Origin: a virus
Taxonomy: Duplodnaviria; Heunggongvirae; Uroviricota; Caudoviricetes
Virus record (IMG/VR): IMGVR_UViG_2687453454_000002
Direction: 5' to 3' (one strand)
Length of the DNA stretch: 51,775 nucleotides
Every line of letters begins with the position of its first letter. Within the stretch, counting starts at the first letter, position 1. The position numbers and the translations under genes are program-made. The notes under the pieces are model-generated. The model was not told the origin of the DNA. It ran no database searches and saw only the letters and a program-made list of their open reading frames with translations. Positions 11,307-51,775 of this stretch are shown here, in pieces.

Positions 11307-11707
11307 CGTTTGAGCTCCCGTATCAGCAGGTTCAGGATATTTTCGCTGATGGCACCATTCAGACGGAGTGATCCGTGCCGGAACGTCACTTCACAGCTGA
11401 TATTGAGTGATTCAGGTGTCGCAGCAGCTACAGGTTGTGACCGGGGGGAGGTTGTAGGGACAACATCTTCGGCATCAAGTGTTATCGGGAGCAGCTCAGG
11501 CACGTTGTTTTCTGTTGTTGAAGGAGGACGTAGTTTTCCTTCGCGCCAGTACTGGCGCCACTTGAACAGCAAATTATCGTTGATCCCATGCTCACGAGCG
11601 AGTTGCGCTACGGAGATCTCTGGTCGATGCGAGAGTTCAACCATTTTGATTTTGAACTCAACGGGATAATTAGGGCTTTTTTTACGCACTGCGGTTAATG
11701 ATTTCAT
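11303..11707 (-). CDS. tnpA: IS66-family TnpA (134 aa, HTH)
   Basis: 134-aa ORF with HTH-like VAQLAREHGINDNLLFKWRQ; first gene of the IS66 operon. Confidence 0.8.
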   Translation of the reverse strand: MKSLTAVRKKSPNYPVEFKIKMVELSHRPEISVAQLAREHGINDNLLFKWRQYWREGKLRPPSTTENNVPELLPITLDAEDVVPTTSPRSQPVAAATPESLNISCEVTFRHGSLRLNGAISENILNLLIRELKR

Positions 11708-43545: not shown

Positions 43546-43556
43546 GTGGGGTGAAT

Positions 43557-45731
43557 ATGGCAGTAAAGATTTCAGGTGTACTGAAAGACGGCACAGGAAA
43601 ACCGGTACAGAACTGCACAATCCAGCTGAAAGCAAAACGTAACAGCACCGCGGTGGTGGTGAACACGCTGGCCTCAGAAAATCCGGATGAAGCCGGGCGT
43701 TACAGCATGGACGTTGAGTACGGTCAGTACAGCGTTATTCTGTTGGTGGAAGGATTCCCGCCGTCACATGCCGGGACCATCACCGTGTATGAAGATTCCC
43801 GACCCGGTACGCTGAATGATTTTCTCGGTGCCATGACGGAGGATGATGCCCGTCCGGAGGCTCTGCGCCGTTTTGAACTGATGGTGGAAGAGGTGGCGCG
43901 TAACGCGTCCGCGGTGGCACAGAACACGGCAGCCGCGAAGAAGTCAGCCGGCGATGCCGGCACATCTGCCCGTGAGGCGGCAACCCATGCGACTGATGCT
44001 GCAGGCTCAGCACGCGCAGCCAGCACGTCAGCCGGACAGGCCGCTTCGTCGGCTCAGTCAGCGTCTTCCAGCGCAGGAACGGCATCAACAAAGGCCACTG
44101 AAGCATCAAAAAGTGCTGCCGCTGCAGAGTCCTCAAAAAGCGCGGCAGCTACCAGTGCCAGTGCCGCGAAAACGTCAGAAACGAATGCTGCAGCGTCACA
44201 ACAATCAGCAGCCACTTCTGCATCCACCGCGACCACGAAAGCGTCAGAAGCTGCCACCTCAGCCCGGGATGCGTCGGCTTCAAAAGAGGCGGCAAAATCA
44301 TCAGAAACGAACGCATCCTCGAGCGCCAGTAGCGCAGCTTCCTCGGCAACAGCGGCAGGAAATTCCGCGAAGGCGGCAAAAACGTCAGAGACGAACGCCA
44401 GGTCTTCTGAAACGGCAGCGGGACAGAGCGCCTCGGCTGCGGCAGGCTCAAAAACAGCGGCTGCGTCGTCTGCCAGTGCAGCGTCAACAAGTGCCGGGCA
44501 GGCCTCAGCCAGTGCCACCGCCGCCGGAAAATCGGCAGAAAGCGCCGCATCGTCTGCTTCAACAGCCACAACGAAGGCTGGCGAAGCCACTGAACAGGCC
44601 AGCGCAGCAGCGAGGTCTGCTTCCGCAGCGAAGACATCCGAAACGAACGCGAAAGCGTCGGAAACCAGCGCAGAATCCTCAAAAACGGCTGCCGCATCGT
44701 CAGCCAGTTCGGCGGCGTCATCGGCATCATCGGCGTCTGCTTCAAAAGATGAGGCGACCAGACAAGCGTCAGCAGCGAAGAGCAGCGCCACGACGGCATC
44801 CACGAAGGCGACAGAGGCTGCTGGCAGTGCGACGGCGGCAGCTCAGAGCAAAAGTACGGCAGAATCCGCAGCAACGCGCGCCGAGACAGCAGCAAAACGG
44901 GCAGAGGATATTGCATCCGCCGTGGCGCTTGAGGATGCGAGCACGACGAAAAAGGGGATAGTACAGCTCAGTAGTGCGACTAACAGCACTTCCGAGTCAC
45001 TGGCGGCAACACCAAAAGCCGTTAAGGCCGCGTATGACCTGGCTAACGGGAAATACACCGCACAGGATGCAACGACAGCACAGAAAGGGATAATCCAGCT
45101 AAGCAGCGCGACCAACAGCACGTCTGAAACGCTTGCCGCGACACCAAAGGCAGTAAAAGCAGCCAATGACAATGCTGAGAAACGTCTGCAGAAAGATCAG
45201 AACGGTGCGGATATCCCTGGCAAAGATACCTTTACGAAAAATATTGGTGCCTGCCGTGCCTTCGGTGGGTCAGTAAGCACAACAACAGGAAACTGGACGA
45301 CTGCACAGTTTATCGAGTGGCTGGATTCTCAGGGAGCATTTAACCATCCATACTGGATGTGCAAGGGTTCCTGGTCTTATGGCAATAATAAAATCATTAC
45401 TGATACTGACTGCGGTAATATTCATCTCGCCGGAGCTGTCATTGAAGTAATGGGGATAAAGTCAGCGATGACGATCCGCATTACCACACCGACCACCTCC
45501 ACTGGTGGTGGAACAACTAACGCCCAGTTTACCTATATTAATCACGGAACAGATTATTCACCTGGCTGGCGAAGGGACTATAACTCCAGAAATAAGCCAA
45601 CGGCATCAGAGATCGGGGCGTTACCGTCAGGTGGAACAGCAGTATCATCAGTTAATCTGGCTTCAAAAGGTCGGGTAACCGCGCTGACAGACAATACGCA
45701 GGGGGCAGCAGGTCTTGAGTTATACGAGGTG
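43557..45731 (+). pseudogene. stf: Side tail fibre Stf, 5' part (interrupted by IS3 at 45732)
   Basis: MAVKISGVLKDGTGKPVQNCTIQL... lambda Stf-type N-terminus, long Ala/Ser-rich repeat region, conserved KGI(V/I)QLSSATNSTSE(S/T)LAATPKAVKAA repeats; the stop codon TGA is the first three bases of IS3. Confidence 0.9.
43920..44940 (+). repeat. Ala/Ser-rich tandem-repeat region within stf
   Basis: Imperfect nucleotide and peptide repeats (for example KTSETNA appears four times; ...SAxxSAxxAA...), producing long spurious ORFs in other frames and on the opposite strand. Boundaries are approximate. Confidence 0.6.
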
Positions 45732-45761
45732 TGATCCTACCCACGTAATATGGACACAGGC

Positions 45762-46628
45762 CTAAGCGAGGTTCTTGTTTTCAAATTGTTCCGGACTGAG
45801 GCCGCCACACCAACTGTGCCGCCGCCACCGATTGTAATCACATTCGATATAATTAAACACCGTTGCCCGCATTATTTCCCGGCTGATAAAGTGTTCTCCA
45901 TGGATACATTCCACTTTCAGCGAATGAAAGAAGCTTTCCACGCAGGCATTATCGTAGCAGCAACCTTTTGCGCTCATACTTCCACGCAGATTATGCCGCT
46001 TCAGTTGCGCCTGATAATCTGCTGAACAGTACTGGCCTCCACGGTCCGTGTGAACGATAACGTTCCGGGGCCTCTTACGCCGCCACAGCGCCATCTGCAG
46101 GGCATCGCAGGCCAGTTGCGCCGTCATGCGTGGCGACATTGACCAGCCAATAACGGCACGTGACCACAGGTCAATGACCACTGCCAGATACAGCCAGCCT
46201 TCATCTGTACGTAAGTACGTGATGTCTCCTGCCCACTTCTGGTTCGGGCCACTGGCGTAAAAATCCTGCTCCAACAGATTTTCTGACACAGGCAGGCCGT
46301 GTGCGCGGTAGCTGACCGGGCTGAACTTCCGGGAGGCCTTTGCCCTCAGTCCCTGACGGCGCAGGCTTGCCGCCACGGTTTTTACGTTAAAGGGGTAACC
46401 CTGAGCACGCAGTTCATCCGTCAGGCGTGGGGCACCGTAACGCTGTTTTGACCGGGTAAAAGCCGCGAGGACAACGCTGTCGCAGTGTTGGCGGAACTGC
46501 TGACGCGTGCTTATCCTTGTCCGCCGCTGACACCACGTATACCAGCCGCTGCGGGCCACCCGGAGCACGCGGCACATTGCTTTGATGCTGAACTCAGCCT
46601 GATGTTTTTCAATAAAGACATACTTCAT
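45762..46628 (-). CDS. insF: IS3 transposase OrfB / InsF (288 aa, DDE)
   Basis: [36 protein letters not shown]... is IS3 InsF. Confidence 0.9.
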
Positions 46629-46924
46629 TTCAGGCGCTTCGCGAAGTATGTCGCGGCCTTTTGGAGGATAGCCAGCTCTTCATCCCGTTCTGCCAGCTGG
46701 CGTTTGAGACGTGCAATCTCGGTAGACATCTCCAGTTCACGTTCAGAAGACGTCTGCTGATTTTGCTGTTTACTGCGCCAGTTGTAGAGTTGTGATTCAT
46801 ACAGGCTGAGTTCACGGGCTGCGGCAGTAACACCGATGCGTTCAGCAAGCTTCAGGGCTTCACTGCGAAATTCAGGCGAATGCTGTTTACGGGGTTTTTT
46901 ACTGGTTGATACTGTTTTTGTCAT
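46625..46924 (-). CDS. insE: IS3 OrfA / InsE (99 aa)
   Basis: [54 protein letters not shown]... is IS3 InsE; overlaps insF in the frameshift arrangement. Confidence 0.9.
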
Positions 46925-46989
46925 GTGAGTCACCTCTGACTGAGAGTTTACTCACTTAGCCGCGTGTCCACTATTGCTGGGTAAGATCA

Positions 46990-47892
46990 GTGTATAACAA
47001 CGGATATCCAACAGCGTATGGAAATATCATTCACCTGAAAGGGATGACAGCCGTTGGCGAAGGTGAGTTACTCATCGGCTGGAGTGGTACAAGCGGTGCT
47101 CATGCTCCGGCATTTATTCGTTCACGACGGGATACGACCGACGCAAACTGGTCGCCGTGGGCGCAGCTTTACACCTCGGCTCATCCTCCTGCAGAGTTTT
47201 ATCCAGTCGGTGCACCAATCCCGTGGCCATCAGATACCGTTCCGTCTGGTTATGCCCTGATGCAGGGGCAGACTTTTGACAAATCTGCATACCCGAAACT
47301 TGCAGTTGCTTATCCGTCAGGCGTGATCCCTGATATGCGTGGCTGGACGATTAAGGGCAAGCCCGCCAGTGGTCGGGCCGTATTATCTCAGGAACAGGAC
47401 GGCATTAAATCGCACACCCACAGCGCCAGCGCATCCAGTACGGATTTGGGGACGAAAACCACATCGTCGTTTGATTACGGAACCAAATCCACGAATAACA
47501 CCGGGGCGCATACCCATAGTATTAGCGGGACCGCAAATAGTGCCGGTGCGCACCAACACAAGAGTTCCGGTGCATTTGGTGGCACGAACACGAGCATTTT
47601 CCCTAATGGTTATACCGCGATTTCAAATCTAAGCGCGGGGATTATGAGCACAACAAGCGGTAGTGGCCAGACTCGTAATGCAGGGAAGACATCATCAGAT
47701 GGTGCTCATACCCACTCGCTGTCCGGCACTGCTGCAAGCGCAGGCGCACATGCACATACTGTCGGTATTGGTGCTCATACGCACTCCGTTGCGATTGGTT
47801 CACATGGACACACCATCACCGTTAACGCTGCTGGTAACGCGGAAAACACCGTCAAAAACATCGCATTTAACTATATTGTGAGGCTTGCATAA
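46990..47892 (+). pseudogene. stf: Side tail fibre Stf, 3' part (C-terminal 299 codons downstream of IS3)
   Basis: In frame with the 5' part once IS3 and one GTG copy are removed (...[23 protein letters not shown]...); His/Gly/Ala-rich distal region GAHTHS...GAHAHT...GSHGHT. Confidence 0.85.
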
Positions 47893-48467
47893 TGGCATTC
47901 AGAATGAGTGAACAACCACGGACCATAAAAATTTATAATCTGCTGGCCGGAACTAATGAATTTATTGGTGAAGGTGATGCATATATTCCGCCTCATACAG
48001 GTCTGCCAGCAAACAGTACCGATATTGCACCGCCAGATATTCCGGCTGGCTTCGTGGCTGTTTTCAACAGTGATGAGTCATCGTGGCATCTCGTTGAAGA
48101 TCATCGGGGTAAAACGGTTTATGACGTGGCTTCCGGCGACGCGTTATTTATTTCTGAACTCGGTCCGTTACCGGAAAATGTTACCTGGTTATCGCCGGAA
48201 GGGGAGTTTCAGAAGTGGAACGGCACAGCCTGGGTGAAGGATACGGAAGCAGAAAAACTGTTCCGGATCCGGGAGGCGGAAGAAACAAAAAACAACCTGA
48301 TGCAGGTAGCCAGTGAGCATATTGCGCCGCTTCAGGATGCTGCAGATCTGGAAATTGCAACGGAGGAAGAAATCTCGTTGCTGGAAGCATGGAAAAAGTA
48401 TCGGGTATTGCTGAACCGTGTTGATACGTCAACTGCACAGGATATTGAATGGCCAGCACTGCCGTAG
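47892..48467 (+). CDS. tfa: Tail fibre assembly protein Tfa (191 aa)
   Basis: 191-aa ORF immediately after stf with start/stop overlap; Tfa-type sequence ([43 protein letters not shown]...). Confidence 0.85.
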
Positions 48468-48564
48468 GGTAAAACATATAAATTCTATAATTAGATGTAT
48501 CTTTCCATTTACGGCAAGGAAGGGGGCTTGGAAGACGTAAAGCATCTCACACCGAGATTATTTT

Positions 48565-49155
48565 TTATATGTCAGGTGTCTGAAGTTTTGCTTTGGCTCT
48601 TAAAATGGTTTGCCGCGAGGTTTTGAATTCCCGGGCAATGGCACTTATACTTACACCTGACTTAATTCGTTCGAATACCGCCTGTTTCTGTTCTTCATTT
48701 AACACAGGTGGTCGACCAAAACGTTTCCCTGCGCCGCGGGCTCTTACTATCCCGGAATGAGTGCGTTCAAGTAAAAGGTCTCGTTCAAATTCAGCGACTG
48801 CTGAAATTACTTGCATCATCATTTTTCCTGTTGGACTGGTCAGGTCAATGCCCCCCAATGCTAAGCAATGCACTCTGATACCTGTTTCGGTCAGTTGTTC
48901 CACTGTTTTCCTGATATCCATTGCATTACAACCAAGGCGATCCAGTTTTGTCACAATCAATTGATCACCACATTTCAGGCGAGCAAGCAACCGGTTAAAA
49001 CCAGGACGCTCACTGGTTGCTGCTGAGCCGCTAATGTGTTCTTCGATTATTTGCTGAGGTTTGATTTTAAAACCTGCACTTTCGATTTCCCGGCGTTGAT
49101 TTTCGGTGGTCTGATCCAGCGTTGATATCCGACAGTAAGCAAAAATTTGAGACAT
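48565..49155 (-). CDS. pin: Pin-family serine DNA invertase (196 aa)
   Basis: [60 protein letters not shown]... with resolvase/invertase catalytic Ser region and C-terminal HTH; convergent with tfa. Confidence 0.9.
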
Positions 49156-49471
49156 AGTGAGACTCTATACGAAATTGGTGTTCATATCATAATGCATCTC
49201 AGAAAATAATTATGATTATTTTTGTGCATATTTGTATGTACACGTTCGAAAATAAACGAATGCGTATGCAACCCCGTAATTTTGGTGAGACCCAAAATCG
49301 ATTTTGTGAAAAATGGCTTTAACTCGGTTTGTTTTTCGAGTTCCGGGCGGACTCAAGGAAGAAGAATAGTGTTGCGTGTTATTTTAACCAGATTTCAAGT
49401 TGTTTGGTCGTGGAAAAGTGGAGCAAAATGTTGTTAAAGTGGAAAAATGATAAAAAAGTAAGTTTATTATA

Positions 49472-49705
49472 TTACATTTTACCATTTAAATTTTGGTTGT
49501 CTTTAAGAACTGATATCGCTGTTTGTAATAATTCTTTGTTATCCAGCCATGATTTTTTCTTTATGTTTCCTTCAATGTAATCAAGCAATGTTCTGGTATT
49601 GATAGGTCTTCCCTGTTTTGCTACTTCCACTACAGCATCCCCTAGGATAATTCTTACTTCAGGAAGCTGCGCAGGGAACCACTTTAGGGTGTCTTTTGAT
49701 TTCAT
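49472..49705 (-). CDS. ydfK: YdfK (77 aa)
   Basis: Internal Met of ORF 49472..49738 gives MKSKDTLKWFPAQLPEVRIILGDAVVEVAKQGRPINTRTLLDYIEGNIKKK..., matching K-12 YdfK as recalled; AAGGAA Shine-Dalgarno upstream. Confidence 0.8.
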   Translation of the reverse strand: MKSKDTLKWFPAQLPEVRIILGDAVVEVAKQGRPINTRTLLDYIEGNIKKKSWLDNKELLQTAISVLKDNQNLNGKM

Positions 49706-50491
49706 GAAGATATTCCTTAAAATATTATTGATTTTCATTGCGATATTGTATGTCTGATTCAGGATATGTTGACTTATACATCGGTTTTGTCTGGGTTATT
49801 GGATATGCCAATCCCTAATTTTATTAGGGCATGACTAAAAATGCTGAATATGATAAGGAGAGATGTGATTATCAGTATGCTGTTCATATAGCCTCGAATT
49901 AGTAATGTGTTATATATGATATAGTTGACAATTTTTATCTTGGGTGTTCTTAAAGTTCGTAGATAAACATTGTCGTTTCAGGTATACAGGAATGCTAACA
50001 GGTGGCAGCAAAAATCAGGCGGTTTATGGCGCAAGCTGAAGCGGCAACTGCAAACTATCTTATGCAGAGACTCTACACGGATTGGGTTTAAAAGTATACA
50101 TAGATAACAGTTTTTATCTGAAAAAGAAAAATATCAAGGTGATATAGCCTATATGCCTTTGATGCGGAGGAATGAATGTGATGGGAGTGATGTATCTGAA
50201 TAGTTGAAAAACCGCAGACACGCCTTATGCAAGAACGTGCTGCGATTGGCTGGTAAATTTTTCGATAGTGTGAGTATTGAGTGATTTCCAGCCGTTCTTG
50301 ATTTTACGCATAAATCCATGAAAAAACTACTTATCTGTTGGGGAGTTTTTTTGGGGCATATATGGGACAGAAATAGGCCCCAGATAGACACTGAGATCGA
50401 ACTTAGGATGCTTTTTAAAAAAATGCAACTATCTGAAAAAACCTAGAAAACGCCAAGGAAACCACAGGATGGGAAAAAACACCTGTGAATT

Positions 50492-51775
50492 ATGGATTTC
50501 CAGTTATATTCGCTCGGCGCAGCGTTAGTGTTTCATGAAATATTTTTTCCTGAATCATCAACGGCAATGGCGTTAATTCTGGCAATGGGAACCTACGGTG
50601 CAGGTTATGTGGCGCGTATTGTCGGAGCATTTATTTTCGGCAAAATGGGCGACAGAATAGGGCGTAAAAAAGTGCTCTTTATTACCATCACCATGATGGG
50701 GATCTGTACCACCTTAATTGGTGTGTTACCGACCTATGCACAGATTGGTGTTTTTGCACCCATCTTGCTGGTGACGTTGCGTATTATTCAGGGGTTGGGT
50801 GCAGGTGCGGAAATTTCCGGTGCCGGTACGATGCTGGCGGAATATGCGCCAAAAGGTAAGCGCGGAATTATCTCCTCATTTGTGGCTATGGGAACTAACT
50901 GCGGAACCTTGAGCGCAACGGCAATCTGGGCCTTTATGTTCTTCATTCTCAGTAAAGAGGAACTGCTGGCGTGGGGATGGCGTATACCGTTCCTGGCGAG
51001 TGTTGTCGTGATGGTCTTTGCTATCTGGTTGCGTATGAATCTGAAAGAAAGCCCGGTCTTTGAGAAGGTTAACGACAGTAACCAACCGACAGCAAAACCT
51101 GCACCTGCTGGTAGCATGTTCCAGAGCAAATCCTTCTGGCTGGCAACAGGGCTGCGTTTTGGTCAGGCGGGTAACTCCGGGTTAATTCAGACTTTCCTTG
51201 CAGGCTATTTAGTGCAGACGTTATTGTTTAACAAAGCAATTCCAACAGATGCATTGATGATCAGTTCGATTCTCGGCTTTATGACCATTCCGTTCCTTGG
51301 TTGGTTATCCGATAAAATTGGTCGCCGGATCCCGTATATTATTATGAATACCTCCGCGATTGTGCTGGCATGGCCAATGCTTTCTATCATTGTAGATAAA
51401 AGCTATGCCCCGAGCACCATTATGGTTGCACTGATTGTGATTCATAACTGTGCGGTGCTGGGATTATTTGCTCTGGAAAACATTACCATGGCAGAAATGT
51501 TCGGCTGTAAAAACCGCTTTACCCGGATGGCTATTTCTAAAGAAATTGGTGGTCTTATCGCTTCCGGTTTTGGTCCTATCCTGGCGGGTATTTTCTGCAC
51601 CATGACGGAATCCTGGTATCCGATCGCCATTATGATCATGGCATATTCAGTGATTGGTTTAATCTCTGCGCTGAAAATGCCAGAGGTGAAAGACCGTGAT
51701 TTAAGTGCGCTGGAAGACGCTGCGGAAGATCAACCGCGTGTTGTAAGAGCTGCGCAACCTTCCAGAAGTCTGTAA
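50492..51775 (+). CDS. ydfJ: MFS transporter YdfJ (host gene, apparently 5'-truncated at the prophage junction)
   Basis: 427-aa ORF with 10 or more predicted transmembrane segments; begins inside the conserved MFS TM2-loop motif (GKMGDRIGRKK about 45 residues from the start); an in-frame TGA lies 2 codons upstream of the ATG. Confidence 0.85.
   Translation: MDFQLYSLGAALVFHEIFFPESSTAMALILAMGTYGAGYVARIVGAFIFGKMGDRIGRKKVLFITITMMGICTTLIGVLPTYAQIGVFAPILLVTLRIIQGLGAGAEISGAGTMLAEYAPKGKRGIISSFVAMGTNCGTLSATAIWAFMFFILSKEELLAWGWRIPFLASVVVMVFAIWLRMNLKESPVFEKVNDSNQPTAKPAPAGSMFQSKSFWLATGLRFGQAGNSGLIQTFLAGYLVQTLLFNKAIPTDALMISSILGFMTIPFLGWLSDKIGRRIPYIIMNTSAIVLAWPMLSIIVDKSYAPSTIMVALIVIHNCAVLGLFALENITMAEMFGCKNRFTRMAISKEIGGLIASGFGPILAGIFCTMTESWYPIAIMIMAYSVIGLISALKMPEVKDRDLSALEDAAEDQPRVVRAAQPSRSL

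Follow-up and report, generated by a model that had tools for sequence, protein, structure and literature searches.

The divergent gene order tnpA-res-tnpR is the classical layout of the Tn3-family transposons, whose resolvases repress themselves and act only where one molecule carries two directly repeated res sites. Genes for the related small serine recombinases PinQ and PinR are carried by the cryptic prophages Qin and Rac of Escherichia coli K-12. In a 2025 paper in Nucleic Acids Research, PinQ was presented as a small serine recombinase that had not been characterised before, with 38% identity to the invertase PinE, and was said to invert the 1797-bp P segment of e14 in trans, not the DNA adjoining pinQ; in the database genomes that the same study surveyed, neither Qin nor Rac showed inversions (PMC12529663). 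By that statement, a Pin without a local invertible segment was already known. In this paper, we have analysed a pin gene in a 51,775-nucleotide stretch of viral DNA (Caudoviricetes; IMG/VR record IMGVR_UViG_2687453454_000002), the whole of which is called the window hereafter, and in which an earlier note had seen a degenerate Pin shufflon. The locus is the end of a Qin-type prophage, and we consider it likely that its pin gene is what has survived of the tnpR end of a Tn3-family transposon and not the invertase of a lost tail-fibre switch.

The flagged "Pin invertase" is the known pinQ of the E. coli Qin prophage. The window's protein is 99-100% identical to PinQ and PinR of the K-12 cryptic prophages, and its gene has the same neighbours (tfaQ, ydfK, ynfT and a truncated ydfJ) and the same promoter hexamers, TGTACA-16-AATAAT; K-12 Qin is a short remnant, whereas the prophage of the window is long (51.8 kb) and its stf carries an IS3 insertion. 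The pinQ module comprises the following features:

48522..48556, minus strand: decayed Tn3-family terminal inverted repeat (tnpR-proximal end), 11 nt after the pinQ stop codon, the same offset as that of the 36-bp repeat on plasmids
48565..49155, minus strand: pinQ, a small serine recombinase of 196 amino acids (aa) (Pfam Resolvase and HTH_7; 100% identical to RefSeq pinQ)
48928..48930, minus strand: codon 76 of pinQ, TGT (Cys) replacing the catalytic Arg (R71 of Tn3/gamma-delta), from the protein alignment
49166..49184, minus strand: homologue of res subsite III, with half-site TATACGAAAT, from the 12-locus alignment
49197..49228, minus strand: homologue of res subsite II (9+14+9), apparently eroded, from the 12-locus alignment; dyad score 8.8
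49215..49242, minus strand: pinQ promoter TGTACA-16-AATAAT, from a consensus scan
49243..49268, minus strand: homologue of res subsite I (12-2-12, the position of the crossover site), apparently eroded, from the 12-locus alignment; dyad score 11.8

Judged by its protein sequence, PinQ falls outside the Hin/Gin/Cin/PinE invertase clade and within the Tn3-family TnpR clade. With the invertases it has in common the superfamily fold and the domain order (Resolvase followed by HTH_7); its gene likewise adjoins tail-fibre genes, and the half-sites have a broadly similar A-tract. It differs from them in that its identity to PinE, Gin, Cin and the mEp237 invertase is no more than 35-38% (in the comparison with phage genomes, 36.1% for Mu Gin, 35.7% for P1 Cin and 35-38% for other tail-fibre invertases), and in a 17-protein alignment it shares indels of 4, 2 and 1 aa with the TnpR-like clade, which PinE, Gin and Cin do not have. 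The pinQ locus also lacks the 26-bp crossover sites, the invertible segment and any detectable conservation of the enhancer. Among Protein Data Bank sequences, the best match to PinQ is Gin (E = 1.6e-29), with gamma-delta resolvase (8.9e-23) at nearly the same distance, and NCBIfam holds no model specific to the PinQ clade, all matches lying far below their cut-offs. On plasmids, by contrast with the 35-38% identity to the invertases, relatives are both close and numerous, with 248 records at 80-90% identity and 1513 at 60-80%. A gene for an 84%-identical resolvase is found on E. coli IncI/K/FIB plasmids (pECOED TnpR), and genes whose products are 78% (Vibrio furnissii) and 56% (Shinella) identical each stand divergent from a Tn3-family transposase gene about 160 bp away. 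In some databases the plasmid transposon resolvase is itself labelled 'putative DNA-invertase from lambdoid prophage Rac', a label carried over from PinR.

The closest Tn3-type modules are the transposon of about 3.8 kb on pECOED and pRM10386-2 (84% identity) and the V. furnissii plasmid copy (78%). The pECOED (L023) and pRM10386-2 (L024) copies adjoin tnpA, with products 88-92% identical to Vibrio TnpA, and are bounded by 36-bp terminal inverted repeats (L023 560-593 and 5600-5635; L024 1824-1861 and 5600-5637); these plasmid relatives define a minimal Tn3-family transposon consisting of inverted repeat, tnpA, res, tnpR and inverted repeat. The pECOED copy (L023 560-5635) is interrupted by IS600, and the element may resemble the cryptic transposon Tn5403.

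By blastn, positions 48526 to 49211 of the window are homologous to pECOED (82.8% identity), a stretch that reaches beyond both ends of pinQ, and the multiple alignment carries it on through subsite I. At the downstream end, comparison by blastn-short and global alignment sets the sequence GGGGGCTTGGAAGACGTAAAGCATCTCACACCGAG against the plasmid repeat GGGGTCCGCTTGGAAAACGGAATATCCCACGCTAAG, the two aligning as GGGG---GCTTGGAAGACGTAAAGCATCTCACACCGAG to GGGGTCCGCTTGGAAAACGGAATATCCCACGCTAAG; we assign it as a relic of the terminal repeat because of its position and the contiguous homology. Gene, res array and terminal repeat are all homologous to a Tn3-family transposon.

The upstream end was aligned over 12 loci from Gamma-, Beta- and Alphaproteobacteria, with 56-84% protein identity. 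The alignment contains three conserved dyads built from the half-site TGTMCGAAA, namely I (12-2-12), II (9+14+9) and a compact III, with a TATAAT-like hexamer between subsites II and III. Within lineages the half-sites change in concert, all five half-sites of Yersinia pestis carrying CTAAA, as would be expected of sites that track their binding protein. In the window, the subsite III half-site TATACGAAAT is the best match to the family half-site in the whole 51,775 nucleotides (12.7 bits). The second-best match, TGACCGAAAC (11.9 bits; 48884-48893, minus strand), lies inside pinQ in the LTET codons and is probably a coincidence of coding. The pinQ promoter hexamers recovered by our scan are the same as those listed for pinQ and pinR among the constitutive RpoD promoters found by genomic SELEX (systematic evolution of ligands by exponential enrichment; PMC3946193).

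The locus resembles the tnpR-res modules of Tn3, gamma-delta and Tn21 in that a homologous res region, with positional counterparts of subsites I, II and III but of doubtful function, precedes the gene, a -10-like hexamer separates II from III, and a terminal inverted repeat follows 11 nt after the stop codon. It differs from them in that tnpA and the second inverted repeat are missing, the half-sites look eroded and the catalytic Arg has become Cys. No tnpA remnant was found in the window, the best tblastn match having E = 3.6, and the one decayed repeat at 48522-48556 has no second one facing it; the element is therefore not an intact transposon. Nor does the window hold a second dyad array of the family or any other partner site, and with a single res-like array no rearrangement is possible inside it.

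Scored with a half-site matrix trained on ten loci outside Escherichia prophages, the window's subsite I and II dyads reach only 11.8 and 8.8, against 25-30 in relatives (27-28 for subsite I) and a shuffle maximum of 16.3 +/- 2.0. The five half-sites of the window show 34 of 45 consensus matches, the fewest of the 12 loci, and their mean pairwise identity of 0.54 is likewise the lowest (0.59-0.89 in the others). The protein points the same way: by parsimony with three outgroups, 18 substitutions fall on the PinQ branch versus 5 on that of pECOED, and six of the 18 hit the 75 columns that are invariant in 11 relatives. On these sequence comparisons, the Qin-type pinQ module looks eroded.

One of these six changes is at the position of R71 of the Tn3 and gamma-delta resolvases. 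All 15 other aligned proteins, invertases included, have Arg there, in a DRLGR motif, and PinQ has Cys76, the codon being CGT in the relatives and TGT in pinQ; all 13 sampled members of the 2148-member PinQ/PinR cluster carry the Cys. PinQ keeps Y7, R9, S11, Q15, Q20, R50, D72 and R73, and at the position of Tn3 D36 it has Glu39, as do most members of the clade, so that with Cys at the R71 position the catalytic set of Tn3 resolvase (Y6, R8, S10, D36, R68, R71) is incomplete. The Tn3 resolvase mutants R71A and R71K gave no resolution in vivo and no detectable recombination in vitro; they cleaved about 1000-fold more slowly, with binding to site I retained (PMC2794168). A mosaic pinQ allele was also encountered at the Qin position of E. 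coli 64A:C (L032 4001-4591). Its protein is 84.7% identical to that of the window, and it combines plasmid-type residues and better II-L and III-L half-sites with the same upstream palindromes and Cys76, which suggests recombination between plasmid transposon copies and prophage copies.

Several observations weigh against a decayed transposon end. The relic of the inverted repeat is only about 70% identical to the plasmid repeat, with gaps, and is missed by blastn-short alone. A functional-looking relative from Parasedimentitalea has half-sites almost as heterogeneous as those of the window (36 of 45 matches, identity 0.59), and 'eroded' is therefore a relative term and not proof of loss. The Tn3 R71 mutants were described as 'not inert', and Cys was not among the variants tested, so residual activity of PinQ is possible (PMC2794168). 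Finally, thousands of genomes and live phages alike carry an intact pinQ, and the overall ratio of nonsynonymous to synonymous substitution rates (dN/dS) between pinQ and the plasmid allele is 0.15, so that the protein has not merely drifted, which argues for some retained function; between the two upstream alleles within the prophage lineage the coding dS is 0.0075, and dN/dS has no power there.

As to how the locus came about, a Tn3-family transposon may have inserted downstream of tfa in an ancestral Rac/Qin-type phage and later have lost tnpA and its far end. The survivors would be the decayed repeat (48522-48556), pinQ (48565-49155) and the three-subsite res with its promoter (49166-49268), and the tnpR gene would persist with its promoter embedded between subsites I and II. 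PinQ today would be mainly a DNA-binding protein with little or no strand-exchange activity of its own, and it probably still binds some of the subsites (III-R, I-R and II-L being good matches) and represses its own promoter. A wider proposal is that PinQ and PinR are crippled Tn3-family resolvases kept by Rac/Qin-type phages as DNA-binding proteins, the inversion in e14 being carried out by PinE with PinQ acting indirectly; we put this forward tentatively, at somewhat less than even confidence. On that proposal, the indirect route would be, for example, binding to pix-like half-sites, mixed complexes, or selection of inverted cells.

The likeliest alternative is that PinQ has full activity as a DNA invertase and finds its substrate elsewhere in the genome, namely the 1.8-kb P segment of e14, inverted in trans, so that the local segment is missing by design; inversion of the P segment would switch the stfE/stfP chimeras that block adsorption of phage T2. 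The published experiments speak for it, and thereby against a catalytically spent PinQ: overproduction of PinQ gave 88% P-segment inversion versus 30% in the wild type, the surviving colonies carried the inverted segment, and the effect was lost on deletion of stfP, stfE or e14 (PMC12529663). In addition, the family half-site (TATCCGAAA / TGTCCGAAA) resembles gix and pix half-sites such as TTATCCAAAACC, and binding of PinQ to pix is conceivable. However, in Table S4 of the same study inversion was 1.5% in a pinE deletion with pinQ and pinR intact, 22% in a pinQ deletion and 30% in the wild type (PMC12529663), so that PinE is required at native levels and PinQ is nearly dispensable; the portion of the supplement consulted holds no test of PinQ in a pinE deletion (PMC12529663). 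An inverted fraction of 88% is also unlike the work of a reversible invertase alone, and selection or biasing would fit it better. PinQ itself lacks the R71-equivalent Arg and groups with the resolvases, and the identity to the annotated Cin enhancer is 40/72 for pinQ, compared with 55/72 for gin and 57/72 for pinE. The pECOED resolvase gene reaches 39/72, so the pinQ match would seem to lie at the background of coding homology and gives no sign that the enhancer is conserved, although Fis sites are degenerate. Taken together, the Table S4 figures and Cys76 favour an indirect role of PinQ, and we regard it as unlikely that PinQ is a fully active invertase.

Another alternative concerns the two repeats upstream of pinQ to which the earlier note had drawn attention, and which lie exactly where it had put them, at 49280-49306:

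49280..49297, strand not applicable: inverted repeat TTTTGG-TGAGAC-CCAAAA, read from the sequence; overlaps the 14-bp palindrome
49293..49306, strand not applicable: perfect 14-bp palindrome CAAAATCGATTTTG, read from the sequence

These could be functional protein-binding sites, whether extra PinQ subsites, a new crossover site of the prophage lineage or the operator of another regulator of pinQ. Set in register, the palindrome can be read as a 12-2-12 dyad (TTTTCACAAAAT CG ATTTTGGGTCTC), and three half-sites of the CCAAAA/CACAAAA type (CACAAAAT, CCCAAAAT and ACCAAAAT) have a loose likeness to TGCACAAAA, the half-site of subsite II in the window itself. Four IMG/VR alleles share the 12-bp core AAAATCGATTTT without change, the commonest alternative allele changes the outer pair in mirror (C to A and G to T) and so keeps the 14-bp palindrome, and the pin-ydfK spacer is enriched in 6-bp inverted repeats (5 observed versus 0.86 expected, P ~0.01). 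The repeats are conserved within a narrow lineage of Escherichia prophages. On the other hand, with only two deep alleles of the spacer the diversity is too low to judge selection, so that conservation has little power, and two rarer alleles break pair 7 of the palindrome. The palindrome half-sites score at most 3.6 bits with the family matrix, where real half-sites reach 10-15, and they stand 2 bp nearer the dyad centre than in family subsite I; with the invertase-site matrix described below the palindrome scores at most 1.6, against 29-33 for real sites.

By itself the 14-bp palindrome is unremarkable at the scale of the window, which contains six perfect palindromes of at least 14 bp versus 3.4 +/- 1.9 in doublet-preserving shuffles, 95% of which hold at least one; for the 316-nt pin-ydfK spacer alone (34% GC), the probability of such a palindrome is about 0.04. 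Longer perfect palindromes occur elsewhere in the prophage, GGCAGGGGATCCCCTGCC (18 bp, 1847-1864) and GCGCCAGTACTGGCGC (16 bp, 11543-11558). Neither flagged repeat has a second copy, and hence a partner, in the window at up to 3 mismatches, and neither strand gives an RNA-structure signal there (fold z -0.27 and +1.04). Weighing both sides, we think it quite improbable that the flagged palindromes are functional binding sites.

Both repeats lie directly beyond subsite I as seen from pinQ and are not included in the block aligning with the transposon res; the roughly 40 bp that contain them stand in place of the tnpA leader. The suggestion that relict recombination sites occur upstream of pin accordingly holds for the res-like subsites at 49166-49268, and not for the palindromes at 49280-49306 that had been proposed. 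The possibility that the palindromes are known promoter elements of pinQ is likewise not borne out, as the hexamers are at 49242-49215 and the palindromes are upstream of them, about 50 bp from the -35 hexamer, with centres about 80 and 90 bp upstream of the transcription start estimated from the -10 hexamer.

Other interpretations of the repeats were considered and rejected. As a crossover site of the hix/gix/pix type, the palindrome shares 15 of 26 positions with pixR by eye, but with a matrix of six real sites it ranks 61st or lower in the window (score at most 1.6), and local alignments to the regions upstream of the Mu, e14 and P1 invertase genes are at noise level. As a homologue of res subsite I it is displaced by the multiple alignments, which put the true homologue 25 bp nearer the gene (49243-49268). 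A hairpin, attenuator or terminator formed by the overlapping repeats is supported neither by the fold z-scores given above nor by any terminator-like site, and compensatory evolution of the palindrome, suggested by the two main alleles and broken in the two rarer ones, is weakly evidenced.

Sites of the invertase type were sought throughout the window with a 12-2-12 matrix built from the real gix, cix and pix sites of Mu, P1 and e14. None was found: real sites score 29-33, and the best 26-mer in the window scores 12.0, versus a shuffle maximum of 12.8 +/- 2.3. Pin-compatible sites, which the earlier note had recommended seeking in the source genome, are absent from the window, as are e14 sequence and pix-like sites. 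It is very improbable that the locus is a tail-fibre shufflon of the P1/Mu/e14 type that has lost its alternative tfa'/stf' set and kept the invertase and relict crossover sites: the order stf, tfa and convergent pin does resemble that of P1 taken from its opposite strand (S, U, U', Sv', cixL, cin), in which cin also converges with S/U, and the window's Tfa and distal Stf part are related to TfaE and StfE of e14, but PinQ falls outside the invertase clade in identity and indels, gix/cix/pix-type sites are absent, pinQ and both its flanks show homology to the tnpR end of a Tn3-family transposon, what the 97-bp tfa-pin spacer contains is the relic of the transposon repeat and not tfa' debris, the collections searched yielded no relative of the module that has an invertible segment beside it, and inversions in Qin or Rac were not found in database genomes (PMC12529663). 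What the degenerate-shufflon claim had built on is nonetheless correct, for there is a single stf distal domain and a single tfa, in one orientation and convergent with pin. A six-frame tblastn search of the window with its own Tfa and Stf C-terminal part and with TfaP, TfaE, StfP and StfE of e14 gave no second tfa or stf distal part, other hits all having E > 0.1, and the alternative gene set is thus absent.

The surroundings of the pinQ module are as follows:

43551..45731, plus strand: N-terminal part of stf, cut by IS3 (Pfam phage_tail_N and Phage_fiber_2; RefSeq 'prophage tail fiber N-terminal domain-containing protein' in an identical genome)
45732..46989, minus strand: complete IS3 insertion of 1258 bp, transposase on the minus strand (RefSeq 'IS3-like element IS3 family transposase')
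46990..47892, plus strand: distal (C-terminal) part of stf (Pfam Collar and Phage_fiber)
47892..48467, plus strand: tfaQ, tail fibre assembly gene (Pfam Caudo_TAP, 3.6e-43; RefSeq name tfaQ)
49472..49705, minus strand: ydfK, cold shock protein YdfK (annotated in RefSeq for an identical genome, with positions transferred to the window)
49774..49887, minus strand: ynfT, small protein of the YnaM/YnfT family (RefSeq annotation)
50492..51775, plus strand: ydfJ', host major facilitator superfamily (MFS) transporter gene without its N-terminus (RefSeq 'MHS family MFS transporter YdfJ, incomplete, missing N-terminus')

The right arm of the window forms the right-hand end of a lambdoid prophage of the Qin type, integrated in ydfJ, and the prophage/host junction precedes ydfJ' (50492). 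Positions 46900-50500 are 100% identical in DNA, over 3.6 kb, to RefSeq E. coli chromosomes annotated tfaQ, pinQ, ydfK, ynfT and ydfJ, and at least 80% of this segment is present in 1718 of 5426 complete E. coli genomes (about a third). The pin-ydfK spacer is found in 2800 of the 5426, mostly as one copy and sometimes as two or three, the extra copies presumably being Rac-type pinR-ynaE loci. In the window pinQ is convergent with tfaQ across the 97-bp spacer, and upstream of tfaQ the stf gene is split by IS3 with a 3-bp GTG target duplication, the ends and the duplication being read from the sequence; IS3 is missing from many otherwise identical genomes, whose matches to the query 46900-50500 begin at query base 91.

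The tfa-pin-ydfK module also adjoins the attachment/integrase region of sequenced temperate phages, including PhiR34_1, 2H10, mEp460 and Tritos. In phage PhiR63_1 (L157), hypothetical genes and not tfa precede the PinQ-type gene, and the pin-ydfK module is therefore not strictly tied to tail-fibre genes. E. coli ECDA1023 carries a Rac-type and a Qin-type pin locus (L008 and L012), which are inverted relative to each other and separated by about 200 kb; both have the same res-like array and palindromes. Contigs 99% or fully identical to E. coli pinQ (L004, L005 and L007) are filed in GTDB under metagenome-assembled genomes of Draconibacterium, Caldithrix and Alistipes, and are almost certainly E. 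coli contamination. Finally, a perfect 17-nt inverted repeat (CAGCGTCTTCCAGCGCA / TGCGCTGGAAGACGCTG) occurs at 44059-44075 and 51706-51722, 7.6 kb apart, with one copy in the Ala/Ser-rich repeats of stf and the other at the 3' end of ydfJ; it is longer than expected by chance on a simple uniform-base estimate, but both copies are GC-rich coding sequence.

The pinQ region of Qin and its missing invertible segment are already stated in the literature, and the locus is an ordinary one; the literature searched contains no paper that links PinQ or PinR to a resolvase or res or that notes Cys76. What is added here is a modest, testable refinement and not a new kind of system. The label 'DNA invertase from lambdoid prophage Rac' has spread to true transposon resolvases, and a concept of "recombinase-activated phage defence" has been built on PinQ as an active invertase (PMC12529663). 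The Tn3-type descent of the gene, its worn res and transposon end, and the lost catalytic Arg make an alternative to that view directly testable. If PinQ and PinR are indeed crippled resolvases retained for DNA binding, the flagged palindromes could be lineage-specific PinQ operators. In this reading of the locus as the tnpR end of a Tn3-family transposon, pinQ would cleanly exemplify a transposon fossil that has become fixed among the accessory genes of a phage family of wide occurrence.

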